The translations under genes and the position numbers were made by a program. This document shows, piece after piece, positions 32,121 to 62,825 of a stretch of 62,825 bases of DNA. Origin of the DNA: Candidatus Omnitrophota bacterium (GTDB lineage: Bacteria; Omnitrophota; Omnitrophia; Omnitrophales; Aquincolibacteriaceae); NCBI GenBank assembly GCA_903884815.1, contig CAISGE010000071.1, positions 1-62,825 of the forward strand, in the 5' to 3' direction. The first letter of the stretch is position 1; each line of letters opens with the position of its first letter. Below the pieces are notes generated by a model. That model did not search any database and was not told the DNA's origin. It saw nothing but the letters and a program-made list of their open reading frames with translations.

Positions 32121-33488
32121 TTAGGCTTCCGAGTATTCGTTTAAAACGCTCGGAATCTCCCCTTTTTTCTGCAGTTCCTTCTTGAGTGCCCTCAGAAAAG
32201 CGTCGACCACGACCGGGTCGAACTGGGTCCCGGAACAGTTGCGGACTTCCTGAATGGCCGAGTCTAGCGATCGCCCTTCCCGATAGCAACGAGATGAGAC
32301 GATGGCGTGAAAGCTGTCGACCACGGCGATAATGCGGGCCTCGATCGAAATCTCGTCACCCTTGAGCCCTCGAGGATAACCCGATCCATCAAACCGCTCA
32401 TGATGCGCCATGATGATCTCCCGAACTCTTTTAAAATCCGTGAGCGGCTCGAGGATCCGTGCGCCCTTTTCGACATGAGTCTTCATGACCTTCCATTCTT
32501 CCTGGGTCAGCTGGCCCGGCTTGCAAAGGATGTTATCAGGGATTCCGATCTTTCCAACATCATGAAGGATCAGCGCCGCGGAAAGGAGATCCTTGGTATT
32601 TCCGGAAAGGTCGATCCCCATCTCCCGGGCCGTCATCATCCCGAGTCGCTCCACTTCCGAAACATGTCCGAAGATATTGGGCTCCTTGGCGTGAACTTCT
32701 TCGGCCAAAGAACGCATGATCTCATAATAGGTCTTCTGCTCCTTACTACGCATCCGTTCAATCTCCTGAAGCCGCCGCTCGAGCTCATGATTCTGTTCAA
32801 TCAGATTCTGGTTGTGCTCCGCGGTTTTGACGGCCATCGAACAATCGTGCGCCAGCGTCTGGAAAAAAGTCACCTCCTGGGTGGTGAAGCAGCGACCGTT
32901 CACGCGCCTCCCCAACATCAGAAGGCCCACGAGCGTATCCTTGAAATAGCCGGGAACCAGCAGTTCCACCTTGAGATTCTGCATCGTTTTCTGGATCGCG
33001 AGGAGATGGTCGCCCTTGGAATTCGAGGCCATGCGGAATTCCGCGCGGGAGAGCATTTTTTTCACATCGGAGAGGAAAAGAAAGTCCTTCTGGATCGGAA
33101 GTTTTTTCTGAGATCCGGCAAACCACTGAACGACGGGGTGATTCGTGTCGAACTTCACGAGGCCCACGGGAAGACGCTTGGCCCCCTTGGAATTCACGAA
33201 CACATAACATCCCTTTTTGGGATCGAGAACAAGAAGCGAGGCGTGCGTCAGTCCGAACTGGCGGTCAATGAAACGGATGATCAGCTTGAGCAGACGGTCC
33301 GGCCTTTTGAGTCGAACCATACTCCGGGCGACATCCCGGAGCACTTCCTGATAATCAAACTTAGGGACAGTCAAAAGATCCACTTTTTTGGGCATAGCGG
33401 GCATTCCCCGGAAAACCGGGTCACTTTCTAGGGCTGCGTTCCTTTTAATTTTAAGGATTCGCAGCGCTGTACCGTCCAAACTTTTCAT
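32121..33488 (-). CDS. GAF-like + HD-GYP cyclic-dinucleotide phosphodiesterase
   Basis: LHDVGKIGIPDNILCKPG, HHERFDGSGYPRGLKG, ARIIAVVDSF, SGTQFDP. Confidence 0.9.
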   Translation of the reverse strand: MKSLDGTALRILKIKRNAALESDPVFRGMPAMPKKVDLLTVPKFDYQEVLRDVARSMVRLKRPDRLLKLIIRFIDRQFGLTHASLLVLDPKKGCYVFVNSKGAKRLPVGLVKFDTNHPVVQWFAGSQKKLPIQKDFLFLSDVKKMLSRAEFRMASNSKGDHLLAIQKTMQNLKVELLVPGYFKDTLVGLLMLGRRVNGRCFTTQEVTFFQTLAHDCSMAVKTAEHNQNLIEQNHELERRLQEIERMRSKEQKTYYEIMRSLAEEVHAKEPNIFGHVSEVERLGMMTAREMGIDLSGNTKDLLSAALILHDVGKIGIPDNILCKPGQLTQEEWKVMKTHVEKGARILEPLTDFKRVREIIMAHHERFDGSGYPRGLKGDEISIEARIIAVVDSFHAIVSSRCYREGRSLDSAIQEVRNCSGTQFDPVVVDAFLRALKKELQKKGEIPSVLNEYSEA

Positions 33489-33515
33489 TTTTTAAAAATG
33501 GTAGTTTTGACGACC

Positions 33516-38569: not shown

Positions 38570-39418
38570 TTAAAACTTTTCAATAGCCTTGGTGATCAAC
38601 TTATCCAGCTTGGGTCCCGCCTCGTTCGCGGTCTTAATAATCTCTTTGATGTCGCAGGGCTCCAAATGGTCCGGATCGCAAGTGTCCGTCACAATGCTTA
38701 ATCCGAGAACCTCCATCCCCATGTGCACGCCCACAATCACTTCCGGCACCGTCGACATCCCAACAAGGTCCGCGCCCCACTGGCGCATCATGCGGTATTC
38801 GGCGCGCGTCTCAAGGCAGGGGCCGGTCACTCCGATATAAACGCCGCGGTTCACGGGCACCTTGACCTCCTGCGAGGCCTGCGCCGTCAGATCGATCAGC
38901 CGTTTCGAATAGGGCTCGTACATGTCCGGGAAACGCGGCCCGAGCTTGTTCTCGTTGGGGCCCACAAGCGGGTTCACGCCCATGAAATTGATCTGGTCGG
39001 TGATCAGCACGATCTCGCCTTTTTTATAACTCAGATTCAGCCCGCCCGCCGCGTTCGAAACGATGAGCACCTTCGCGCCAAGCTGGCGGAGAACGCGCAC
39101 CCCGAACGTCACCTCGTCAAGCGAGTAACCTTCATAAAAATGGAACCGGCCTTCCATCGCCGCGATCTTCTTCCCCGAAAGTTCCCCGAGCACGAGCTGC
39201 CCCTTGTGCGACTCGACGGTCGATTCCGGAAAATGCGGCAGTTTGTCATAGGTCAGGACGGTTTCGGCCTTGATGCGCCCCGCGAGATTCCCGAGTCCGG
39301 TGCCGAGCACCAGCGCGATCTCCGGCACAAAATCCGTTTGCTTCCGGATCGCCGCGACGCAGGCGTCGATCTTTTTCAAGAGTGAACTCTGAGGTTTCTG
39401 TGTGCGCTTCATGGCCAT
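38570..39418 (-). CDS. punA: Purine nucleoside phosphorylase I
   Basis: LGTGLG, STVESHKG, GRFHFYEGY, SNAAGG, GPCLET.AE, VGMSTVPE. Confidence 0.93.
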   Translation of the reverse strand: MAMKRTQKPQSSLLKKIDACVAAIRKQTDFVPEIALVLGTGLGNLAGRIKAETVLTYDKLPHFPESTVESHKGQLVLGELSGKKIAAMEGRFHFYEGYSLDEVTFGVRVLRQLGAKVLIVSNAAGGLNLSYKKGEIVLITDQINFMGVNPLVGPNENKLGPRFPDMYEPYSKRLIDLTAQASQEVKVPVNRGVYIGVTGPCLETRAEYRMMRQWGADLVGMSTVPEVIVGVHMGMEVLGLSIVTDTCDPDHLEPCDIKEIIKTANEAGPKLDKLITKAIEKF

Positions 39419-39422
39419 AAGA

Positions 39423-39725
39423 TCATCCTCCCCCAAATTGATAAGCGAGCCTCATCAAAACCGTGACGAGGATCTTGTCAGTAATAAAAAGCATAAAAAA
39501 GGCAACCATCGGTGAAAGATCCAGCATCCCGATCGTCAGAGGCAACCGTCGCAAGGGCGCCAGGATCGGGTCCGTCACCTGGATCAGGAACTGGACGGGT
39601 CCTGAAAAAGGATCTATAGGAATCCAGGAAATAATGATCCGGGCGAAAAGAAGCCAGTAAAGAAGAGTGCAGATCCCGTGGACCAACAGCGCCAAACCCT
39701 GAAAAATGATTCCAATTGCAAACAT
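39423..39725 (-). CDS. yggT: YggT family membrane protein
   Basis: RIIISW...TDPILAPLRR...LDLSP. Confidence 0.9.
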   Translation of the reverse strand: MFAIGIIFQGLALLVHGICTLLYWLLFARIIISWIPIDPFSGPVQFLIQVTDPILAPLRRLPLTIGMLDLSPMVAFFMLFITDKILVTVLMRLAYQFGGG

Positions 39726-46991: not shown

Positions 46992-49900
46992 CTATGCCGC
47001 CTTTCGGATCTCGGAGCGGGCGACAAATTCCCTGGCCAACGCCATGAGGTTCTCGACGAGGAAGAAATTCAGCCCCATCTGCCTGACGCCCGGCAAATAC
47101 TCCGTCACAAACTTCAGCAGAAGTGCCTCGCGAGCGGCATCGTCCGGAACATTTCGCAGGAGACTCGCTAAATTCTTAAGAGCGATCCCCAGCGCCGTCA
47201 CGACCATCATATCCCCCGAGCGGACGCCGGGCGCACCGAACGCAAAGTGTATCCCCGTCTCAAGACCTTCGCTTGAATTCGCCGCGAGATGCAGGGTCGC
47301 AAACCCCGCCGCGTCTTTCCCGAGACCCACAGCATACTGATTGAGAACCTGATTTTCCGTCTGGCCTCCGGCCGGTTCAATCACTTTGAGGATCTCTCCC
47401 TGTTTGATCGCCTCCAGGATCGCCGTCCGGACCTCGAATTCAGAAGGAGCCACGACACCTTCGGACATAAGACCGCGTTCAATATCCCGGATCAGTGCGT
47501 CCCTCGACCCCACCACGACAAGCGGGGCATCGCCGGACCCGGACGAAGCCTTCAACAGAGCATAGAGGGCCTTCTTTCCTTCCCTATTCATGAGATACGC
47601 CTTAACCATATCGCCGCCAATCGCGAGCGTCCCCTGCGCTTGGGAAACAGTCGTCACAGATTCTGCCACGCCGCTGGGAATCTTGAAGACACCGTTCTCG
47701 GCCGTGAGGTTACCGTCACCCGGCAGAAGCGTCCCAAGAACATCGTTCGGCTCTCCAGCCTCTTCAGCCGCATGGACCACAGGAACTCCGGCGATCTGGT
47801 TGATGACATCGGCAACGCCAGCAGTTCCCAGCGAGGCCTCGACCTGTTCCACCTTATTCATGGCGAGCAGACCAAAACAGAGCTCCTTGTAGAACACACG
47901 AAGGGATTCGATCTGCTCGGGTGTCAGGATCACACGGTCCCCTTTAAAACTCATCCGCTCCTGCGGCCAATGCGGGACACTCGGCGCATAATACCCCGCC
48001 CCGATCAATTGGGTGTGTCCGATCCGAGACGGAGGACTCTGATGAAATCTCATTTCCGCCCGGTTGGCTGTCTCTTCAGAGCGAGCCTCGCCGAGCTCCC
48101 TATAGGCCCGGACCAAGCGGGGATTTCTATGTAACAGTCCCAATACGGGTTTCAGCTTCACGTTGATCCAGGGCAAGCTACCATCGGTATGGCCCTCGGA
48201 AATAGCGATCTCCCCAAGAATGGCCGATGTCCAGCGCTGAGCGTCTCTTCTTGTCCCAACCTCAAGATTGGAGAGAATGAACACGAAGAACGGCTTAAGC
48301 GCCCGGGCGACGAGCTCGGGGCCGTTTTGAAAGTGAGAAGATCCGACGGTCGCAAAGATCCGCTCCTTCTTCCCCAAGTTATAAAGATCGATCCTCCCGA
48401 CAGCGTGAGTCCCGCCCATCGATCCGATCTTGTCCACCACCTTCCTGTTCCACCAGTCTGTCACAGCTATATCAAAATCCTGGGCCGCTTCATCCGTCAG
48501 ATTCCCGAGATCATCCAGCACGGCATTTTGCGCGGGGGCAAAAGCGCGTTTTTCCGCTCGCCCCAAATCTTCCCCTTCCGGTTCCGCCACGCTCCTTGCG
48601 AGGACTCGGTGAGCCGCATGCTGTATTTCCAAATCGAGATCCGTCTGCGCCAATAACTCATGAATCGCAGGGAGCGCCCGATCCCCAAGCTTGATCAGTT
48701 CCTCCACCGCGTCATCACGCGTAACGTCGTTTTTCAAAGCTTCGACCCAATAGCCCACGGGATGCCGCAGAATAAAGATGTTCATCACAATATTTCCAAA
48801 TATCTTGAAAGCCACAAAACCCAAGCCGATGATGCCTAGGATCAGCATTCCCAAATTCTCGGTTTTATGATAATTCCAGAAATCACTGAAGGAGGTCACC
48901 CGCAGAACCTCCAGCGTTTTCATCGCACGGGTCCTGAGTTCCCTGTCGGGGGATGTCAGATGACGTCTCGCGAATTCCGGCGCACCCGGCACCTCCGCCG
49001 CTGCAGCGATGTTGCCCTGGATCAGAAACGAATAGAACTGTGCCTCCGGATTCTCGAGTTGTCCGAGGAGATCCCCGGTGGCCTCCATGAGGATGTGACC
49101 GCCCATATTCTTGGGCCTGTGGCCGAACTCCTGCCTGAGCGCGAAATACTGTGTGATCGCGATGGGGGCCACCTCACCGGACATCCCGATTAGCGCGTCC
49201 TTGATCTTCTCCCTTAAACTCCCCCCCGAATCGTACATGTCCGTCCAAGCCGTAAAGAGCACTTGGGCCGACGCGGCGTTTTTTATCTTTCCGAGATCTT
49301 CAACGGCCTTTGTTTTCGCTTCCAGCGGCGCTTTATCGTTCGCGAGCACCACCGCCGGATCGTACGCCAAATTTGTCATCCCCGTTGTTGTTACCGCCAT
49401 CCCTCGGGACTTCCCAACCGGCCGCTCAAACTGCTGGATAAAAGTCCCTCCCGGAAGCTCGGCCGCACGCCGGGTCTCAACCGGTTTTGTAAAAGCAATT
49501 GCAGATGTCACAGACATCAGCCCGGCGAGCACTACGACAGGAAATCGGACTTCGGAACGGTCAAGGGGCTTGGAGCTAGCTTCGCGTGCGGCCGCAGCCT
49601 CCGCAATTTTTTGGGCCACCAAAGTTTCGACCTGTGCTCGCGAAAGTCCGGTTTCGGTCATGATGTATTGGATGGTCGTTTCGCTCAGGGGCAAATAAAA
49701 CCGCGCCGCCGTCCCCTCTCGCAAACGCACCTCAATCGGTCCGGGGATGATTTCCGTGCTCCGCCCTTCGGAACGTTTGGTTATAGACCCACTAAGTTCT
49801 AAAAGAAGCGCATATAGCGCGTCATCAGCCCGGAGATATTGTTCCTCGATCGCGGCCATGCGGTTTAAAGCTTCCGGAATATCGTCTTGCTTCAATGCGG

Positions 49901-52900
49901 CACGAACGGAAACAAGCTCGGGAACACGGTCACCAATCTCCCTCATGATCGTTTCGGCGTCACGCGTTTCCGCCCGGGTCATCCAGAAGGGAATTTCAGC
50001 AGCGATTTCTTGCGATGTGCTCGATTCATAATTCCTGACCTTCCGGAGCAAAGGCCTTACGAGATAATCATCCAAATACTGGACCTCGCCGTAAACCTCA
50101 GGTTTTCCTTTCAAAAATTTTTCTAAGCCAATAACCCCGGCAACCCGGACAATGGCCTTTGCAATTTTCCATTTGGTAGCAGGATCCAGGTGGACGTAAT
50201 TTGTCCCATCGCGCGGCAACACAAATAACACCTGTTGTATTTGCCGCTTCTCGGCCAATTGATTGACCAATACCCGGACCCGCGCTTCGGCGCGCCCTTG
50301 GAGTTCGCGATTTCCGATCCATTCTTCCCAACCGGCACGCACTCCTGCCAAGTGATAAGCAATCATTCGGGCTTCGCCGGTCGTGCGTATCACCTGTGGA
50401 AAAAAATGATCCCTAAAAGCCCCCCCGATCACTTCCACGGCCCCGGCAAAAATATAGACCCCAAAGGCAGGCAGGCCGATGCTAGAAACATAAAGGCAAA
50501 GAATGACCATCATGAAAAATCCCTGGGATGCCACTTCGGGATGGGCCCTGCCCATTTGGACCTGAGCGAACCACGCGCCGGCTGCGGCCGCCGCAAGAAC
50601 AAGTACCGGCTTGATAAAGGGAGCCGCCGCTACACTAAGTTTCCCCATAAAAATACCCGTCACCTTCGTCGCCATCCAGACACGCTCACCGAAGGAAGGA
50701 CTGCGAACTTCGGCACGAGGCTCGAATTTGCTGGTGACCGCCATGGTGCCCAAAACAGAGTCGTTCTCCGGAACTTTAATCATATCGAAAATACCGGCGC
50801 CCGTGGTGGGCTGGATACTCGCGACACCTTCGATGCCTGCTATCCCAATGGGCACCCATGCCGTCCTGCTCCCAAAAAGTTCGTCTTGCGTAACGCTCAG
50901 GATCTCTCCCGTTTTTTTATTATAGAAATACGCTGTAGAATTCCCGTCCGCGCCGAAGGTCAATCCCGTATAAAGCTGTTCGATGTATTGCTTAAGAGGA
51001 AGGCCCTGACTCAGGTCCTCGGAGGTGCCCGCAACATCCACGGTCTCAACGGTGGGCGCGTTCATCCCGTCGCTTGTCACAAGCCGGCGCTTTGAGGCTT
51101 CGGAAAAAACTTCCCAGTCCTGGATATTTTCAAGCAGGAAGAAGAAATGGAGACCGAAATTCAGAAAGATCGGATAAGGATTGTTATTGATGATCTTGAT
51201 CTCGGGAGTCACGCCCGAATCCCCAAGCTTATACGTAAGGATCAATTCGGCATCGCCTAAATGAAAATCTTCGGCCAGCAATTCCGGATAGTCTTTCGTC
51301 TTCAAATGGAAGGAGATCTGCGGAACCCCGTCGACGATCCGGATATCCGTGGCTTCGTCCGTCGTCCACTTCATCCGGGCAAAATAGCCGTGCAGTCCGT
51401 ATTCCTTATTCGGTCCGATCGGCCGCGTCAGCTTCGATCCGGTATCGATCTTGTAAGTCTTCCCCCGCGCTTCAAACTGAGCCGGACCGCGAGTGGTCCA
51501 GGGGCCCATCACCGCGGAGCCGCCACCGAAAGGAGCTCCCTCCGCGTCCAAAAGCTTTTCGCCCTTGCCTTTATGCCATATCCTCTGAACCCTGCTTCCA
51601 TCAGGTTGCTTCATCAAAAGCGAAATAAGATTCGCTCCGAGAGTTGTCGCCTCAGCTTCATGCCCCGCCGCGTTCGAGAGAAAATAAACAGGATGGCCGT
51701 CGATCATGACTCGATCCACACGGCTGCCGCTGTCGTCGGAAATCACCGTCTCCATCCCTTCAAAGAGGGAATCCTCTTCTCTACCAGTGAATCCCTTAGA
51801 TTTAGCGCCAAAGCGCCGAGCCACAGGCGGGATCCGACGGCCGTCGTCATCTACGACTTGCCGGATCCGGATCACGGGGATGATACTCCCCCCCGAAATT
51901 TTTGATTTAAAAGTCCCGGCCTCAAAAACCTGGAACCGGCTCGGTTTCGCGTCGCTCAAATGGCTGTTGATCATGGCCTCGATATCGGCAGGGACCGCCT
52001 GTCCAAAAAGGTTTATGCTCCTCTCGTCCGGGATCAGAGCAAGATCACGCAAGTCGTCGTCCTCCACTTCCACGGTCCGACTGAAACGCCGGATCCCGGC
52101 ATAGCCATCGATCTCGATAAGGACCTTTCTTGGCTCTAAGTCACTAAACTCTGCCCGTTGCACCGCCTGCAGAGCGATCTGGAGGGCCGCGGCATAAACG
52201 CTTTGTTTCGTCAAGTCCCGGGATTCGGAGCGAAACCTCTTCGCCAATTCCCCGGACCTCTTGGAAAAAGCCATGATATTTTTCTCCAATTGGTCTAGAT
52301 AGGCATCGAGGCCTCCCATCCTGTCTATGACGTGCCCGGCGATATTCAAGTCGCAACTCGTGGCGACAATAAAACCCCGTGTTCCCATGTCTCTAAAAAG
52401 CTTCTCGACTGCAGCAATCACCGCGGCTTCATCCTTCTCCGCCAATTCGCTTCCCGCTTCGGTATTGAGGTTTCCCATCAGGACGGGCCGCCTCGGCTCA
52501 CCGGCATGGATTGCTTCCAGATAATCATAGATTTCCGCGAGGTTCTCATAGACAGCATCGATGCTCAAAATGTCGAGGCCTTTGATTTTAGTGAACCGTT
52601 CCATGATTTGCTGATTCATGTCGCGGTCATGGCCGGGGCAGCACGGATGATAGCCGGACAAAGCGCCGAGGCCATGGAGCAACTCGGACAATCTGCCGAC
52701 AGGATCCACGCCGTACTTCTCGTAGGCGTCAAGATCGAATAATTTATTGTGAGCCAGTCCCGTTGCCGTCGGTTCCAGGTAGACAATGCCGTCCACATGC
52801 CCCTCCTTGACAAGATATTCCGACACCGCCGCGACGACATCCTCGGCGTATTTCATGACTTTCTGGAATTTGACAAAATCCTCGTCATGTTGATCTTCTT

Positions 52901-55900
52901 TTCCGTTGTACAATCCCATCGACATTTCATTGGAATCCATCAGCATCACGGCCAGAGACATCGGCGCGATCACTTTCGCGATGCGGGGTTCGCCGGGGCG
53001 TTGATCTTTCATGTCACTGAAAAATTCGGCAAGAGCTTTGATCCTGCCGTGTTCGAGCACGTCTTTGGCAGGAGCCAGATTATCCAGATCCGTAATGCCC
53101 GCTTGATCCAGGTAAAGAAGTTGGGAAGGGGCCAGGCTCAAGTCATCGTTGAATTCGGGCCGGAGATCCTTCTTGCCGTTGGCTTTCAAAATGGCTTCGT
53201 GGAGCATGTAAATGTCCATATTGCCCATCACGACTTCCATGCCGAAGTGGTCCGTGACCCAGTTGCGCATTTTGGCGTGGGCCTTCGGATCGGTGGCCAC
53301 CTGCTCAATCGTGAGTTTCTCTTTCGGATGGTGCTTGTTGTAGAGTGCCAGCGCTGCGTACCCGAAAATCGGCGAAAAAGCCCGTGTGTCCTTGAGATGG
53401 TCGAGCACCTCCCGCCGCAGAGCCAATAACTCCGCCTCATGCGAAAGCGCGGAGGTCCTTGTTTCTGACCGATGGAGACGGGAATCGGCCCATCCATGAA
53501 CCTTTCCTTCCGAGGCCTCTTCAGCCAGGACATCCTGGACCAATCGCGGGTATTGGCTCTGGATCTTAGAAACAAAATCACTGAAAGGAATCCCGGCCCG
53601 ACCCGCCTCGACCTCCATCCCCTCGATCACCTTAAGAGCCAGTTGGCTTTTCTTGGAAAAAGAATCGATCTCGGCGATTTCTTCGGTCGCTCTCCGGATC
53701 GCACTCCGGAAAAAATACGGCACGATCAGGAATGACAGGGCAAAAACAGCGCCCGCGGCGATCAGCAGACCGGAGGTCCACGCAGCCAAACCTCCGAATG
53801 TCACCGCGACCGCGCCGAGGCTCAAAACGATCGTGGTCACGACTCCCCATTTGCGTACCTTTGGCAACAAATGTTCCTGTCTGAATTTTTGTGTGCGAAA
53901 TACGTCCCGATGGGCTGCGGAGGTCTCCGCCAAATGCTCTCTCACCTCATCGAGACTAGAAACTCCGGCACGGACGACCTCGCGTGTGAGACCCCAGACC
54001 TCAGCATCATCAATGATCGCCAGGCGTTCCAACACCATGACCGCAAGTTCCGCGGCCGTTCTCGTCTCAGCCCGGCCAGAAGCAAGTGACCAATCATTGA
54101 GGTCATCGGAATACCAATCCAATCCCCGGGATTCCAAGAGAAAACGTACCGCCAGATTATCTCGCGCGGCTACTTTTAACACAAACTGCGCGGCCGCACG
54201 TAACAAGGGTTTAATGTTGCCAATCGCTTCCGCGAGCAACGCAGGAGCTGCTCCATACCCGATCTGGCTTAGCGCGGCAATGGTCAACAGCTGAAGAGAC
54301 AGATTTTCATCTTTCAACAGAAGAGGCGGATTTTCATCTTTCAACTGAAGAGGCAGATTTTCATCTTTCAACGCCTGGACCAGAAAAGGAATGGCGCTAT
54401 CGTCTCCGTAACGAAACGCTTTTAAAGCTTTCACGCGACGCGATAGGGCTCTCTTCGGCGACAGGGAATCCAATAATCCCGGTTGCATGGCCCCGATCGC
54501 TTTCATGACCCGGAAATACTGACGCAAAAAACCGCCGAAAAAGAATTTTCGGGCGGAGGGAATAGTGATGCCGCCTATGGCGAATGCAGCAAGGAGGATT
54601 GCGAACGTCAGACCTGGATTGGGAGTGACGAGCGCGGCGCCAAGCACGATCCCGGCAACGGTCCAACCGGCGAGCTTCTTGAAAAATCTCTGACGGTCAG
54701 CACGATCCACCTGCTCTTGAAACGCCCCGTGAACCAGGTCATAAACTGCGCCCTGAAACAGATGTATTGAGGCATAAGAAAACCGATCCCTGCTTTCTTT
54801 GGAAGCCTGCGCAAACGCGACCGCAAGCCCATGCCACTCTTTTTCCGCGGCACGGCGCGTTGCCTTGTCCACATCAGGAGCATCCATCACTTTGCGATAA
54901 TCCTGATAAGCAGCGACGACTAACGTCACGGCTTCCGCCGCGGAACGGTTGTCTCCTGCGCTTAAAAGTTCCGCCATACGCACGGCGGCGCTTTGCTGAT
55001 CCCGTGATTCCGAACGCCCGTACTTGTCGCGGATAGCCTTCGCAATAGTTTCATAACCTGGAGGGATTTCGCGCGTTTGGACGTGCACGCGATCGGCTTC
55101 TCGGACTTTCGCGAGGATCTCCAGCTTCGTGGCCCTCGTCCCGTTTAACCCTTCAAAAAAAGTCGATTTGCCAAGCCCCTTCTCAAGCGCTTTCAGAAAA
55201 GCGTAATAGTGTTCCTTCCGGGCTTCCGGGATCTTACTCACGACAGCCATCCAGACATCCTGGATCTTTTTAAGTTTCTTTTGATCGATCCTGTTGCCCT
55301 GCATGGCCAACCGCTGAAGGGAGCCAACAAACTTGGCCGGTGCCTGGGCCGCGACCGGAACAACTCTCCGCGCACCCGGGCGAACAGGTTGCGGCGCCGT
55401 ATTGGCAGCGGAAACTGACGGAGCCACAGCAGATACCTGGACAGGCGACGGGATTACGGGGCGAACCACCCCCAAAGTGGACTTCGGCGAGCTTGATGCC
55501 TTTTTAACTTCCGGGTCCTCATCCCCCCAGAGGTAGTACTTTAAATTATCCGTCCAATACTGATGCAGAGACTGTTCTTTGTCTGACATCCGGGAAGCGG
55601 GCGCCACAGACACTCTGGAAGCCGCCATCCGGGGAGCGAGTGCCGCCGATCCTCTGACATCTGCCATCCGGACTCCCGGTGCTCCCGCAGGCCGCGGGAC
55701 AGGATTCCTGTTCGGAACAACCGGTGTCGCAGTCTGCGCCTGAACAACCGGCGGTGCCGCCTGCGCAAAGGGAGGTCTGACAGCCTCCGCGGAAAAAGCG
55801 GCGCTTTGCGTTACGGGCGGTTGAACCGGAACCTCATGGGTAACAGCTACTTTCACCGGCTCTAGTTCGATCATGGATCTATCAACTATCGAGGCGATCT

Positions 55901-58900
55901 CCCGGTACCGACGTATCCTGAGCCGGACCTGCTGGTTGGGATCCAAACTCCACTTGTGATCCCGGGAAAGCGCCTCAAAAAATCCGGCAACCCACTCCGC
56001 GGGATCTTGGGAAAACGAAGCGCCCATCCGAGCCCAAAGGATCTTGTCTGCAGCGGGGCTCATGGCAAATGCGTTGACCTCCGGGTTCTGCCGCTGCCAC
56101 ACTTCCAGCCAGTCAGCGAGCCTTTCCATCAAATCTCCAAAACGATAAAATCCCTGGTATTCCTCGGGCGATCCCAGTTTCGTGAGCGCAGATTTATCCT
56201 GAAGCTCCACCCGCGTTTCATTGCGGCGATTTGTACCGGGGTTATCGTCATTCGGTGAAGGACGATCAAGAGCATCTGGGCCTTGTTCCCCGTGATGGAT
56301 CAATTCCTGCAGAGATTCCCACACGTGGGCGTAACTCGGATCATGCTCGATATCCTCCGGCCCGAATGCGCGCCACAGCGGGTAGAAAAGCGCCACGAAG
56401 GGCACGAGAATGAGCGTGCCAAAGAGCCCGGCAATGCCCCCCACAAGCACATCGAAAAGACCTTCCTGAGCCTGCCGGTATAGGTACCAGGAAAGAGCAA
56501 AGGTCCCTTTCACCGCGGCCTTCCATCCCTCAACAAACGGCTGGCGCGCCTCGGCGCGGGGGTTGGCAAGCGCTTCGAGGACGGCCTGCTTTGCATCCGT
56601 GAAAAAGGTGGAAAAATCGACAGGCCCCCCGTCATCGGAAGGAGCCAATCGAGCCTGCACATCCATCCAGGGAAACCGCACAGACGGCGAAAGGGAATCG
56701 AAATCCACGGCTGCCGTGATCTCTTCCGCGAGTCTCTCTGCGTCGAGCCCCGAGCCTTCGATAAGCGCAGCCGCGAACCCGTCTGCGCTAAGCTCCTGTT
56801 CTTGTTCTGCATCTTGTGTATCCATCGCCGCATCGTCCGCAGGAAGTTCCAAAATCGGAGAACCGGAAAGAGGAACATAGAACTGGAAGAAACTGCCGGT
56901 TTTGCCCCGGATGGTCAAAGAATTGAGGAAATATCCCGGGACGCGGATACCTTGGTTCCTAAGAGCCGCGATGCTCTGGGGGCGTGGCTGGACGAATTCC
57001 TTAGCCATCACGGATTTCAGAGCCGCTCCGAGGACGCCCGCGATAGGCCCCTGCAATTGATCGCCCGTCAGGATCTGCACGGCCAGCGGGCGGTCTTTGT
57101 CTGACCGGAATCGACGCATAAGCATATCTCTCAAAAATTCCCCGAAAAGCTTCTTTTTCCGCGAGCTTGAAAGAATCTCTTCCGCGCGATTGAGAAGCCC
57201 TGCGACGGTATCCCCTTCCCCTCTACCGATGGCGCTCTCGATATCGTCCTCCAGAAGAAGCAGTTCTCTGAGCACGTCTAGCTCCCCCGATTTGTAGGTG
57301 AAGGACTGAGTGTAGGGAAAAACATTCTCCAGGATCTGGCGAACTGTTTTTTCGATATCCGGACTTCCCCGCACCAGGACGGTTTCGCGGGGCAAGTCCC
57401 TGCCTTGGCCTGCCACGGTAGGTCCGGTCACTGCGGCATCCACTTCAACCTTCAGATTCTCTTGATCGGCCGAGATCTGTTGGATCGAAAGCCTGACCGC
57501 CAATTTATCACCGGACGGACTGACGCATTCGATGACCACAGATTCCGTGCGCACTTTCACCTGCTGCTGACGCACGACAGGTTTTCCAGGTCTCTTAACT
57601 TCAACTAGTTGGCCATCTTCCCCCCGGGTGTAATTGGCCGGCCGGAGATCCTGGATCTCCTGAATAGCGGGAACTTCTTTGATCTGATGGAGCACAATAT
57701 GTGGATTCCGGAGTTCCGGGGATTTCAGAATGCCTTTGGCGACGATCAACAGATTGTGATTCCGGATGCTCAGGGTCTCGAGCCAGCGCGCTACGGCGTG
57801 CCCGGCCGGGCCGAACCCGTCAGCAAAACGGTTCATAAAATCGTGGTGAGCATATACAGCGGGAGTGATCACCTTCCTGTAAAGGGGCAGTTTGGGCCGG
57901 TATCTTTTAAAGCCGTAATATAGGATCACACCCACGACGAGTGAAGCGAAACCGTAAGTTACGAGAACGATCGTCCACCGGGCGTATTGTGCCGACGGTT
58001 CCAGCCGCGCCGAGATGAACGCGTTAATCTTATACGCCGAAAAGAAAGGGGCCGCGGCAACAATAGCGATCCGTATGAGCCAATGGCCGGCCCATCTGAG
58101 GAGGACGAAAAGGTCCCTCACCAGCAGCCCGTGCGCCTTGAGCATCGTCACGAATCCGGGATTCCCTCCCCGGTCCTTCGTCCTCTTTTCCGCCCGGGTG
58201 CCAAAAAGCTTTGCGGGGTCGTCAGCGCCTTGAGTAAGATCTGATTTCCTCGCTTGGGAACGGCGTTTGAGAGAGAACGTCAGGGTTTTCGACATCCCAT
58301 CATCCTCATCCACGTAAGAATAACTGACAGCGATCGGAGCGCCATTGTCGTGAACTGCAGTCTCGTCGTGTTGAACGCCTTGTCCGAAGACCCAGATCAG
58401 TCCAGCGCCTGTATGTTTCGAGTCCATCGGGTTTGCCCATCGATCCGTGGGCATCGGAACTCGCTTGCCTGCCGGAACCTCTTCCTCGATCTTCTCTCCG
58501 CCTGGGAGCTTGATCATCAGAAGATTTTTTTTCGGATTGGCCGTCGCAAGGACCCCCGCGGTAGGACCCGAATCGCCGTATTTCAGATGGGCCAAAAGGC
58601 TGGGTTGTTTCGCCGCTTCCACAGCAAGTGGCACCTCGGAAGCCGGCTCAGAAACCTGACAGCTCACGAGCCCCAAAACTCCCGCCAGCATGATCGCCCC
58701 GAGGAAACCGCGAAGCTCGGCGCGGTTGGTTCTTTGCGTACCTGCAGGGACAAGTTCCAAGCCGCGGCGGTTGAACACACGCCCTAGCCCCCAAGTCGAC
58801 CTTTTTGCGACCTCCTCTTTGGTCATCACAAGACTACCTTTCAGTTGAGCAAGAGGCATTTCCCGGGTTGTAAAAGGGCCCCGAAGCTTGACAATATTGC

Positions 58901-61900
58901 CGCCGCCGGATATGAATCCCTCAAAGGTCCAAACGATTCCGTCGGATAATTTCACCTTATCCCCGGGTTGGGGCTGGATCGCCCTCCATGCCGTCGGTTG
59001 AGCCATAGGCTTCGCGCGGAGTTTGGGGCTGGCCGTGCTCATGGTATTCAGGTGACTCACTAGGGAATTAAAAAACTCAAAGGAGTCCGAGCCTTCATTC
59101 TGAACGATCCAGGCATCATGGAACTCACGGTAAAGACCGGCAGCAAAGGACGCGACGGCTCTGGGCTGGAACCCTCGGCTTTCCCAGAATTTCCGCGTTG
59201 CTAAGAGCGCGCTCTCGTTCCAGATCTGTTGAGGATCCGTTTGGGGGGTATATCCGGCAAGCATCGGTCTGAGGACCTTCAGCATATCTGCGGCCACTTC
59301 CCTCCGGTTCCTCATCTCCGCGCGGGTGATCGAGATTCTATCCTTACCATCAAGAGCAAGATCCACCTTATCCGGAGCGCCTGAAAAAACCGTGTCCTCA
59401 TCCAGGGTTCTTTGTCCATTAAAGGCCTTGCTGACCCTGTTGGCGAAGGGCACGATTGTTTGTTCCGAAGGCTTCCAGAAACTTCCGGGGATGGTGATCG
59501 CAACGACCTGACCGCTTGTTTTGGGGACAAAAAGAATTCCCTGAAGAACGGGTCTGCCGAGGTTGAATCCCAGCAGCCGGAAATGAGCCATCACAGCAAA
59601 TAATTCGTAGTTTATGCCGCTAACCTCTTTCCTGTTCAGAAACCAAGCCGCCCTTGTCACCTGCTCCGGAGTAGCGTTGATGCGGGTCAAACGCACTGAA
59701 GGGAAAGCCACCAAATAGGCCAGGTTCGCGGTGTCAGGCACCAGAGACGCCCACCACAAGGAACTCAAGTGATAGGAATCCTCGCCTAACGGCAGGTTGA
59801 GCCCCGCCTCGGTCGAGGTAGCATCAACGATCCTCTTCTTATGGATCCCTGCCCACCATGATCGCAGCTTGAAATTGGGATCTTTCCATGGCCCAAAAAA
59901 ACTGATGCCCGAAAAAATGACCCCCGTAAAAGCAGCCGCCACAAAAGGACTCGCGACAATCTCCAAACCCAGCGCGGCGGCTAAAACACCGGCTGCCGCG
60001 ACCACGGCGGTCATGAGCGCCAACCATGCGTCGGCCCGCGAAAAAAAAGACGCGAGAAATATCCCGAAAAAGATGACACCGGAAAGCGCGAGTGTCGCCG
60101 CGCCAACGGAAACAAGATTCAGAAAAAGCGAAGGGAAGAAAACCAGCGAGAATATACCGAGCGCCAGGGTCACTGCGGCAGAAATCGTGGTGAGCCTCTT
60201 CTCAAGGGCCTGGAAACGAAACGCTCTGTAGGCCTCTCGATAAGTCACGAACCCGGGATCATAACTGATTTGTTGAACTGTGGGAGCCTTTTGGAATGTC
60301 ACCCGTCTAACGCCTGAAGCCTTGCTGTAAATTGTAGCCCCATTGTCAGCCCACGATATAAGAAGGCCTTCCACGGAACGCCCTTCATCGGTCGTCCCAG
60401 CCACGTGGTACCAAACTCTCCGCTCCTCCTCCGCTGTCGCGGTTGGGACTGACTTGTAGTGATCCGCAGTAACCGCTGTCACCTCCACCCTCATCTCCGC
60501 ACGAGTTGTTATGTCATCGCTAACCTCGTCGAGTACCGCCGCTGGCCTTGCTGTGGGATACCGCTTCGGTACCAAGAGCGCGGCAAAAACGGTGACGACC
60601 AACGCCCCTAAGAGTGCTACATTCATGCCGAACCAAGTCGTGGAATGAAAGGGAGAGGTTACCGGATCGCCGAGTTCCAGCCGCGAGGTAAAATAGTGCC
60701 CGATCGGGAGAATAGCCCACGAGAGCATGGCCTGTTGCCAACCGGCCCCCAAAGACGCCCAATCGCGGACTCTCCATCCAAGATCCTTCCACATTGCACC
60801 AAAGGCGCGGCCCTCGGCGCGGCTCTTGAGCGTGTCGATCACGTTCTGCTTATATTGGTTGAAAAATTCCGCGGCGAATGCGGCGGGATCCAGGTCCCGG
60901 GATTTCGCCTCTTGAGCTAGCACATTCCTCCAACCCGGCATAATGTCGAAGGGCAGATCGTGAAAGGTGTCCGCTGCTTCAAGAACTTCCACGAGATAAT
61001 CCGGCCTTGCCTGCAGCGCCGTCATCAAACGACCCGCGAATCCCGCGATGTCTTCCGAGCCGATGCCTCCGTGTTTCAGTGTGTTTTGAACGCGCTCGCT
61101 TGACATGAACGGCCGGATCAATCTCGGCGTCAACGTGATCCCCTTTTCCGAACGAGTCCCGATCGGTTCGTCCATCAAATTTCCGGAACCGTCAATATTA
61201 TTAAAACACCTTCCGCTAAGCAATACCCCACCGCCTTTGTACGCGGTAAATCCGAGCGTCACGGAAGCCTGAGACTGCTCGGGATTCTGGATCACGACAT
61301 ATCTGAGAGCCGCGTGATGAGGAAGAACGGGAGAGGGCTGCTCTATCGTGATGAATTCAGGACGGATGCCCCATGACTGCTGGAGAAGGGTCTTAAGGTC
61401 CGCCGCCGCCTTGTTCAATTCCTGTGCCGGCGACCCCATCCATTCAAGGGGCGAGCTTGTGGAAGCACCCCGACCAGCACCCGTGGCTTGAGACTGGGGC
61501 AAAGAAGATACCCTCTTAACCGGTGAGAAAAATAAGCTAACCCACGTGCGAAGGGTCTTGCCCGGTTGTATCGTGACATCCATTGCTCCCGGAGGACCGG
61601 TTTGTGGTTCTAACCCGAGATAGTCCTTACCTTCCGGTGTCCAGAATGTTTGATTAAGGAAGACTTCGGGATCCGCAGCCATCAGGATCGAGTAATCAGA
61701 ACTATGAAGTATCCCGGAGGGTGTCCCGCTCGAAACCGGACGGGACTCATCCCATTGAGCGCCCTTAAGACCCTGTATGGAAAGCCACGACGGAGCCCCG
61801 GACCATTGATCACGGTTGGGCGTGTTGAAAACAAGATGCTCGCCGAAGCCGACCTTTTTCGCGATCGTTCCCGTATTCTCGATCTCATACTGGATCGCGA

Positions 61901-62825: not shown

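Follow-up and report, generated by a model that had tools for sequence, protein, structure and literature searches.

An R-[AS]-E-x-R motif at the module borders of giant Omnitrophota proteins, a candidate processing site of cellular polyproteins

The 62,825-nucleotide stretch analyzed here (contig CAISGE010000071.1 of the Candidatus Omnitrophota assembly GCA_903884815.1, from now on referred to as the window) carries on its minus strand, at 46992..62825, a giant open reading frame (ORF) of 5,277 open codons whose 5' side leaves the contig. This ORF is divided by a recurring five-residue motif, R-[AS]-E-x-R, that is selected at the protein level, conserved across a family of giant ORFs, specific to the lineage and located at module borders. 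Based on sequence analysis, the motif probably represents the processing site of a lineage-specific endoprotease acting on a cellular polyprotein, a reading to which we assign a probability of roughly 0.6. Two features of a polyprotein, one ORF with several independent units and a recurring short motif at the unit borders, are found.

We hypothesize that the gene belongs to a phylum-wide family and encodes a modular precursor of ~6,819 amino acids (aa). The precursor would start with a cleavable-looking signal peptide of the general secretory (Sec) type followed by a conserved N-terminal module (N-module) of 550-650 aa, continue with unrelated and rapidly exchanged cargo of median ~220 aa (enzymes, small membrane proteins, lipoproteins and substrates of the Sec or twin-arginine translocation (Tat) pathways) and end in a conserved C-terminal module with an amphipathic helix and a final -[KRQ][AS]A. 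In this lineage, R-[S>A]-E-[small or aliphatic]-R would act as punctuation between modules, and a dedicated endopeptidase would recognize and cut it, yielding separate proteins in the manner of a viral polyprotein. At least part of the cutting would precede export and be cytoplasmic, given that the motif is immediately followed by signal peptides of the Tat and lipoprotein types.

The R[AS]ExR motif in the ORF, the genome and the family

The original prediction, made from the window alone, described 20 RxExR copies, and all 20 are present in frame with the positions and spellings it gave, compared with 1.5 expected. Strict R[AS]ExR accounts for 18 of them; the estimate of fewer than one by chance was borne out by residue frequencies (0.26) and by 2,000 shuffles (mean 0.29, maximum 4). 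Near-variants are virtually missing from the ORF (R[AS]ExK, K[AS]ExR and R[AS]DxR 0, R[AS]QxR 1), as are shifted spacings of the motif (0-2 copies). The two copies reported from the other window ORFs (15,600 aa in total) were likewise recovered, namely RAEFR in the ORF at 32124-33491 and RAEYR in the ORF at 38573-39451 (PNP_UDP_1).

A comparably high frequency in ordinary proteins would have spoken against a special role of the motif. In the genome under study (2.87 Mb in 80 contigs, G000 in locus names), it is ~50 times denser in ORFs above 4,000 aa (128 strict sites in 14 ORFs totaling 107,731 aa, 1.19 per 1,000 aa) than in ORFs below 1,000 aa (17 in 719,311 aa, 0.024 per 1,000 aa). In total, 17 ORFs carry at least 2 sites, amounting to 103,168 aa or ~10.8% of the genome's DNA. 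The motif is not a general property of large ORFs: 10 ORFs of 1,996-7,410 aa have no strict site, and an ORF of 12,698 aa has just 2. A logo of 206 sites reads R-[S 0.46, A 0.30, T, N]-E-[T, K, L, M, V]-R, with unconserved flanks.

The original prediction presented the motif as a feature of this one ORF, which is incomplete, as the ORF is one of thousands in a family with conserved N- and C-terminal modules. A set of 150 diverse homologues (449,033 aa), the best of 9,665 representatives retrieved with an N-module profile, contains 1,085 strict motifs, compared with 23.8 +/- 5.0 in shuffled sequences, while K[AS]ExR occurs 40, R[AS]ExK 20 and R[AS]DxR 23 times. Position 2 is Ser in 831 and Ala in 254 cases, position 4 is mostly V, A, L, M, S, I or T, and the distance between sites has a median of 220 aa (interquartile range 110-396). 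Shuffles and near-variant controls thus rule out chance and composition as the cause of the motif count. The strictness of the motif, which does not tolerate K or D, implies a specific reader, though not necessarily a protease.

Along the window ORF, the first sites are RTEKR (aa 139, 62397..62411), RAEGR (aa 669, 60807..60821), RAEMR (aa 775, 60489..60503), a second RAEMR (aa 1168, 59310..59324) and RAELR (aa 1368, 58710..58724), all on the minus strand like every feature of the ORF. Site 5 is directly followed by a lipoprotein-type signal peptide with a hydrophobic core and the lipobox LVSC (58659..58709). Next come RAEKR (aa 1544, 58182..58196), RAEAR (aa 2090, 56544..56558), the non-strict site 8, RNETR (aa 2201, 56211..56225), RSESR (aa 2604, 55002..55016) and RAETR (aa 2918, 54060..54074). 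Sites 11 and 12, RSETR (aa 3119, 53457..53471) and RSESR (aa 3532, 52218..52232), are followed by RAEVR (aa 4037, 50703..50717), RAEAR (aa 4178, 50280..50294), RAETR (aa 4284, 49962..49976), RSEGR (aa 4351, 49761..49775) and site 17, RSEVR (aa 4423, 49545..49559), directly after which lies a signal- or anchor-like hydrophobic segment (49488..49544). RAEKR (aa 4756, 48546..48560) and RAEMR (aa 4922, 48048..48062) precede the conserved C-terminal module (aa 4927-5277, 46995..48047), and site 20, RSEIR (aa 5270, 47004..47018), forms part of the conserved C-terminal tail, with only three residues left before the stop codon.

The window holds the 3' 5,277 codons and the stop of the gene, and the 5' 1,542 codons are found on contig C50 of the same assembly. 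The C50 ORF encodes the N-module, a Glucosamine_iso domain and 6 sites, and its terminal repeat is the repeat that opens the window ORF. From its residue 1543, the database protein P0002 is 99.7% identical to aa 1-4769 of the window ORF, and before that residue its sites are spaced as in the C50 ORF. The complete precursor therefore has ~6,819 aa, 26 motif sites and ~16 transmembrane-like segments. The internally repeated stretch (aa 1-126, 62448..62825) corresponds to the C50 ORF's end and is the probable cause of the assembly break; the ORF is split between window 62448-62825 and G000:C50:1-270 at an internal protein repeat of ~40 aa. This DNA is contiguous and identical, without any insertion or deletion, in the per-run contigs of three studies (four metagenome runs, two of which may be source samples); a single per-run contig spans 46900-62474, and all four assemblies stop in the repeat at ~62474-62760. 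Genes downstream in the window encode a tyrosyl-tRNA synthetase, an ABC-2 transporter and similar proteins.

It had also been claimed that codons at the sites vary freely, so that conservation would be at the level of protein and not of DNA. The premise is wrong, as 158 sites of this genome show a strong and reproducible synonymous bias. The first Arg codon is CGC in 56% and CGT in 22% of cases (background 23% and 16%) and AGR in 6% (background 27%), with CGY reaching 78-83% as compared with 39-41%. Ser is encoded by TCC in 50% (background 23%) and by AGY in 4% (32%), Ala by GCC in 52% (31%), Glu by GAG in 64% (50%), Thr by ACG in 81% (40%) and the last Arg by CGG in 43% (27%; 40-43% overall), giving a consensus of about CGC KCC GAG ACG CGG, as at 53457-53471 of the window. 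Neighboring-codon context was ruled out as the cause, and so were optimal codons: the ribosomal-protein cluster on contig C3 prefers CGY and GAA and avoids CGG, while the sites use GAG and CGG or AGG. A CCGC/GCGG hairpin at the sites was rejected as well, since its stem shows no base-pair covariation (p 0.56 and 0.61).

The bias invites an explanation in which R[AS]ExR is merely the translation of a nucleic-acid signal, either a site of recombination or integration (through cassette exchange or target-site duplication) or one at which RNA is processed. Such a signal would agree with a bias that is independent of context, recurs at 214 sites in 16 loci of other genomes and extends to the GARLA and RxSTSG sites of other lineages described below, and also with modules being swapped exactly at the motif and cargo differing within a genus. 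However, the degenerate DNA pattern occurs in the giants 123 times in sense frame 0, compared with 6 times in the other sense frames and 8 times in antisense; variation at the sites follows the genetic code (GAR only, CGN/AGR, KCN, fourth codon free) with amino-acid-changing neighbors being rare, and the proposed stem lacks covariation. Because of this confinement to frame 0, the synonymous variation and the rarity of non-synonymous neighbors, selection acts on the peptide, and a nucleic-acid signal, which fits the data poorly, appears improbable. The argument for protein-level conservation thus stands on frame and code, with a synonymous bias that had been overlooked. A function at the protein level and recombination at the motif may well go together, and the codon bias could be the trace of a motif-coding sequence inherited or homogenized through frequent module exchange at that position.

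Module borders, cargo and targeting signals

The motif had been said never to fall inside a recognizable domain, and this holds for the four giants searched against Pfam (window ORF, C50, C43, C77), where each of 15 domain regions is confined to one module and none spans a site (0/15, joint chance 2.7e-4). The regions comprise URO-D, two aldose epimerases, HEAT, DUF2207_C and Glucosamine_iso, further an SF1 helicase, GlnD, ACT and histidine phosphatase, and finally a sugar transferase, two methyltransferases, an Rce1-like domain and PGM/PMM. The URO-D-like domain (aa 3166-3493, 52347..53330) lies within the module of aa 3124-3536 and is bracketed by RSETR and RSESR as described. An aldose 1-epimerase domain (aa 3713-3976, 50898..51689, E 2e-15) ends by profile extrapolation at ~aa 4036, in agreement with the claim that the second epimerase ends at RAEVR (aa 4037); the weak Aldose_epim match further upstream (aa 227-342, 61800..62147) scores 21.6 bits and remains below the 27-bit cut-off. 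Enzymes, small membrane proteins and a lipoprotein are indeed among the modules, in agreement with the description.

Homology between giants begins and ends at the motif. Among the 150 homologues, the start of an internal homology block lies no more than 3 aa from a site in 19.4% of cases and its end in 10.3%, as compared with 2.2% at random for both (n=165), and blocks of C-terminal modules begin at a site in 20% as compared with 1.8%. The URO-D-like module is common to four giants with unrelated flanks (window ORF, P0044, G010:C14 and G002:C67), with the block shared with P0044 (63% identity) stopping exactly at both motifs. At its 5' border, RSE[TSIV]R is present in all four, and the sequence in front of it is unrelated. 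At its 3' border, a motif is located within 3 residues of the same column in three of the four; the fourth has a degenerate copy there and a true motif ~20 aa further, with unrelated sequence beyond. Within aligned multi-module blocks, 25 of 46 sites are retained although identity of the flanks is merely 19-46%. Cargo differs even within the genus, and a search with aa 2918-4041 of the window ORF matched 2 of 40 other genomes, in both through the URO-D-like module only. The URO-D-like module alone has no homologue of near length at E<=1e-5, which is not proof against stand-alone relatives. An AF2 model of this module with 35-aa flanks (3 sequences, pLDDT 58.8) places both bordering sites in stretches of pLDDT <50, but its confidence is too low for it to count as evidence.

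Some observations on cargo extend beyond the window. The ORFs at G000:C43:35902-59436 and G000:C77:19034-47875 include SF1 helicase, GlnD-like nucleotidyltransferase, methyltransferase and PGM/PMM modules as well as an Rce1-like intramembrane protease module, so that cytoplasmic-type enzymes are found in precursors led by a signal peptide. The Cys content of giants is 0.2%, compared with 1.2% in ordinary ORFs. An N-module ORF of 9,781 aa (G000:C40:3-29345) has 4 strict sites and one unbroken module of 6,255 aa, meaning that some modules are themselves of giant size.

Immediately behind the motif, signal peptides of the lipoprotein, Sec-like and Tat types begin. A transmembrane-like segment is located within 40 aa downstream of 94 out of 1,231 sites, compared with 11 upstream and a background of 2.1%. 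Seven lipobox signal peptides (6 distinct) are located downstream of sites and none upstream, in proteins with ~0.1-0.2% Cys; the example from the window reads RAELR|GFLGAIMLAGVLGLVSC. Tat-like motifs number 11 in the entire set, and 7 of these are found no more than 30 aa behind a site, in a zone covering 7% of the sequence. Signal peptides in this position are expected if each module becomes a separate protein. The immediate surroundings of the motif are hydrophilic and depleted of hydrophobic residues.

Met is not overrepresented behind the sites (0.56-1.28 times background), so the modules appear to lack starts of their own and nothing points to internal translation starts. Separate proteins could in principle also arise without a protease through translational recoding, either by a 2A-like "stop-go" peptide or by termination and reinitiation. 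The sites are in frame and sense-only, and their codon bias includes the disfavored CGG and AGG at the last Arg, both in favor of such a mechanism. 2A elements, however, need a longer nascent-chain context, and there is no conservation upstream of the motif here, no Met or start signal after it, and sister lineages use quite different short motifs. Recoding fits the data poorly and seems very improbable.

The main rival explanation leaves the chain intact. The motif would then be read but left uncut, either serving at each module border as a docking or recognition tag for a chaperone, an insertase, a modifying enzyme or a partner or acting as a topogenic or linker element, and the giant would remain one polypeptide with many transmembrane helices. 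The motif is charged and its surroundings are hydrophilic, published topology work treats such ORFs in its main text as single proteins with a signal peptide and transmembrane segments, and cutting at site 20 in the conserved C-terminal tail seems pointless. Against this, Tat and lipobox signals after the sites make little sense in an uncut chain of 6,000 aa, and the fact that sister lineages have unrelated motifs in its place is better explained by a co-evolving pair of enzyme and site than by a generic linker. We therefore regard the docking tag as unlikely, if well ahead of the nucleic-acid and recoding explanations.

Conserved terminal modules and lineage-specific motifs

As seen by BLAST of the segments between motifs, the first module, about 500-650 aa long, is homologous among those motif-bearing ORFs whose 5' end is intact, and this N-module starts with a signal-peptide-like segment. 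A profile of eight N-modules retrieved 9,665 representatives (50% clusters) at E<=1e-3, including 6,431 at E<=1e-30; in all of the best 150, the module is N-terminal, in proteins of 460-7,823 aa. It is present in 41/41 sampled genomes of the same order, with 5-38 matches each in frames of up to 11,850 aa, and in 115/151 genomes sampled across the phylum. The nearest ESM-Atlas clusters are annotated as "hypothetical protein", mostly from Candidatus Omnitrophota, with scores of 0.87-0.89 that serve as a lead only.

The N-module has no NCBIfam match and no Pfam match over the curated cut-off, and a PDB sequence-profile search yielded only noise. Its commonest weak Pfam match, PF04187 ("Tiki superfamily, ChaN"), is found in 6 of 26 members at E<=1 with a best value of 9.8e-4, which is below threshold. 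An AF2 model (pLDDT 71) shows an alpha/beta core with a large helical insert of ~320 aa. Foldseek against PDB returned no match for this model at E<=0.001; in a VIA-align scan, HopBA1, EreC, 2qgm, ChaN and 2rad are five of the top six matches with moderate Z scores of 8.2-9.6 (5t09 Z 9.6 over 167 aa with a root-mean-square deviation (rmsd) of 4.1; 6xcq Z 9.3 over 183 aa with rmsd 4.4; 2qgm Z 8.8; 2g5g Z 8.5), with PMT and RRSP (Z 6.3) ranking lower. Seven residues are invariant in 26 N-modules from across the phylum, namely H55, Q61, E83, R506, G531, G532 and H534. We take conserved His, Glu, Arg and GxxH to be the catalytic-type pattern of the EreA/ChaN/Tiki superfamily, which the N-module matches. 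In the model, the fold resembles the EreA/ChaN/Tiki hydrolase superfamily, which includes proteases (Tiki, RRSP). With EreA/ChaN/Tiki/TraB proteins, the N-module has in common the alpha/beta core, an invariant H...E...R...GGxH pattern and the weak PF04187 matches; it differs from them in the missing Pfam match above cut-off, the helical insert and its place as first module of a giant precursor. As the sole conserved enzyme-like part in cis, the N-module is a candidate for the processing protease, an assignment we consider tentative and rather doubtful.

Two genes encode stand-alone N-modules without cargo, G000:C27:98759-100849 (697 aa) and G000:C73:3191-5449 (753 aa). The one on C27 has no proper motif at the usual place, and its profile match continues past the end of the ORF through two TGA codons. 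In the variable loops of the N-modules L001-L008, inserts such as (A)VRRTPSAV or RTPYSV recur at different loops and read like an in-frame tandem of the heptanucleotide TACGGAG and its reverse complement, that is, like small inverted-repeat DNA inserts within a coding sequence. TACGGAG was rejected as a genome-wide repeat, its single copies being at expectation, with 12 exact tandem tracts only. Three further giants of 7,410, 7,188 and 12,698 aa, with 0-2 sites, do not have an N-module (G000:C65:20281-63961 and G000:C21:21450-59543), and no N-module match was found in the large ORFs compared (two on C65, one on C21). These three are partly homologous to each other, Cys-poor and represent a different class of giant genes.

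At the other end, the C-terminal module of the window ORF (amphipathic helix, final -KAA) has homologues in the C-terminal modules of other giants. Where the 3' end is intact, as it is in 16 giants of this genome, the protein always finishes in [A/S/M]A, and an [AS]A ending is found in 103 of 150 homologues, compared with 28 of 2,185 ordinary ORFs. The residues before the end follow an amphipathic pattern (L-22, L-19, L-18, L-15, [LF]-11, A-9, [ITV]-5, A-4, K-3), and six of six complete ends from distant families finish in [A/S/Q]A (L046-L048, L052-L054). The amphipathic -[KRQ][AS]A tail (46995-47060 in the window) is thus also encountered in lineages with other punctuation motifs, and further on two N-module-less giants of this genome (...AVAA on C21, ...EVAA on C65). 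It presumably resembles an ssrA-like or secretion-type C-terminal signal.

The punctuation itself changes between lineages. In N-module giants from five other families of the phylum, R[AS]ExR is at expectation (0-1 per 4,232-6,666 aa). Unbiased enumeration of gapped patterns of 3-5 residues, which recovered RSE.R from control loci (44 compared with 0.3), identified other motifs: GARLA in G070 (31-35 observed, 0.6 expected) and R[GAQ]STSG (RxSTSG) in G051 (14-19 observed, 0.2 expected), both from other families, [KR][AS]E[LM]R (K.ELR) in G024 from another genus of the same family (9 observed, 0.2 expected) and Q.AS.G / A.SLG in G039 from the same order (6-7 observed, 0.07-0.2 expected). The flanks of these alternatives are unrelated and their spacing resembles that of modules; the first copy is usually found at aa 554-651, where the N-module ends, and the motifs sometimes precede signal-like segments, including a Tat-like one after RASTSG. 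A motif that differs between lineages sharing the N-module fits a protease co-evolving with the specificity of its site.

Extending this to the phylum, we would put at about even odds the proposal that its giant ORFs are true polyproteins, with co-evolving protease and motif and with cassettes recombining at the motif DNA. A tenth or more of the coding capacity might then be organized as 10-40 precursor genes per genome, with the cleavage motif depending on lineage (RSExR, K[AS]ELR, GARLA, RxSTSG or QxASLG). Cassette recombination at the motif-coding sequence would account for both the hypervariable cargo and the codon bias.

Polyprotein processing and related systems

The original prediction that the sites are cut by a sequence-specific protease stands in so far as a protein-level motif is located at the borders of autonomous modules, is followed by targeting signals and differs between lineages; the cleavage and the protease themselves are what we infer from this. 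Several points weigh against processing. The N-module carries an export signal, while Tat and lipoprotein signals call for cytoplasmic cutting, which strains a model with a protease in cis. A protease in trans has not come to light either, as no protease gene, and no conserved neighbor that could serve as protease or transporter, recurs among the 131 neighbors of 17 giants. Cutting at site 20 would free only KAA, and a purely protein-level site does not predict a synonymous-codon bias. A hydrophobic segment follows ~8% of sites, and for most modules autonomy is deduced from homology borders alone. In the low-confidence AF2 model, one of the two sites is predicted to be helical, at low pLDDT. 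Enumeration of 4.7-12.6 thousand aa (kaa) each yielded no convincing motif in G061, G047 and G043, three of 8 other genomes examined, or in G034, and one giant of G070 has its first GARLA only at aa 5422. Published work finally treats such ORFs, in its main text, as single proteins with multiple transmembrane segments (10.64898/2026.06.07.730766).

Among systems in which proteins are released from a common precursor, the polyproteins of picorna-, poty- and nidoviruses are the closest in layout. They share with the giants the many units per ORF, the short border motif with unconserved flanks, the lineage-dependent specificity of the motif and a conserved enzyme-like module in cis. The giants differ in residing in a cellular genome, with at least 15 such genes on ~10.8% of its DNA, and in that cleavage is a proposal. 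Further, the N-module has an EreA/ChaN/Tiki-like fold, not a chymotrypsin- or papain-like one, and an export signal, and the units carry Sec, Tat or lipoprotein signals of their own. MARTX toxins are giant bacterial precursors with exchangeable effectors between conserved ends that are released by a cysteine protease domain (CPD) autoprotease cutting in inter-domain linkers. The likeness to the giants lies in the exchangeable modules of a giant bacterial precursor, and the MARTX effector RRSP, of Tiki-like fold, is the weak N-module match mentioned above. By contrast, the giants have a strict five-residue motif in place of Leu-X, an N-terminal Sec signal and cargo of housekeeping-type enzymes and membrane proteins, and no RTX repeat or Peptidase_C80 was found by Pfam in the window ORF, C50, C43 or C77. 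Multi-cassette precursors of ribosomally synthesized and post-translationally modified peptides (RiPPs) such as cyanobactin PatE, as well as prohormone and alpha-factor precursors, have repeated protease-recognition sites that bracket hypervariable cassettes. Their cassettes are peptides of a few residues, whereas here they are whole proteins of ~100-1,700 aa, one of them of 6,255 aa.

Giant ORFs of Omnitrophota have been described before. According to the main texts of two studies, the small genomes of this phylum encode many giant ORFs with unrelated enzyme domains, transmembrane helices and often signal peptides (10.1101/2023.11.21.568195; 10.64898/2026.06.07.730766). Cleavage was proposed by West-Roberts et al. 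2023, in the main text on the basis of C39 and S8 domains and with cleavage points given as unknown (10.1101/2023.11.21.568195). The layout of the giants analyzed here fits the class of "multi-enzyme metabolic cluster" as set out in the main text of the later study (10.64898/2026.06.07.730766), which contains neither "cleav" nor "motif"; with 2-13 kaa, they differ from the published examples, which exceed 30 kaa in those main texts. Of the domains by which archaeovorin and Dockerin-type giants of Omnitrophota are described, namely Dockerin/TSP3 repeats, C39 or S8 peptidases and SecA-DEAD, none was found among the Pfam matches of the window ORF, C50, C43 and C77. The motif, the N-module and the C-terminal tail are not mentioned in the main texts of these two studies, of Seymour et al. 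2023 or of 10.64898/2026.06.04.730025. Among the papers listed in a literature search, none contains both "polyprotein" and "Omnitrophota" and none contains "bacterial polyprotein" or "prokaryotic polyprotein". The motif was thus not found described in the literature searched, while the polyprotein as a kind is known from viruses.

The giant ORFs of Omnitrophota and similar bacteria have so far been read as single enormous proteins, with function, topology and folding that are hard to study, and a key study sees the obstacle in cleavage points not being known (10.1101/2023.11.21.568195). The punctuation motif supplies candidate cut points by which they can be divided into protein-sized units for structure prediction and annotation. 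It further offers exact candidate neo-termini for proteomics and raises the question of which protease reads RSExR, GARLA or RxSTSG. Should the chain remain uncut, the motif would still constitute a new signal shared by the family, and some machinery would have to read it. If it is cleaved, these bacteria would be cellular organisms that follow a polyprotein strategy at genome scale and exchange whole proteins like cassettes, and their "giant proteins" would be recast as an operon-replacing mode of bacterial gene expression.

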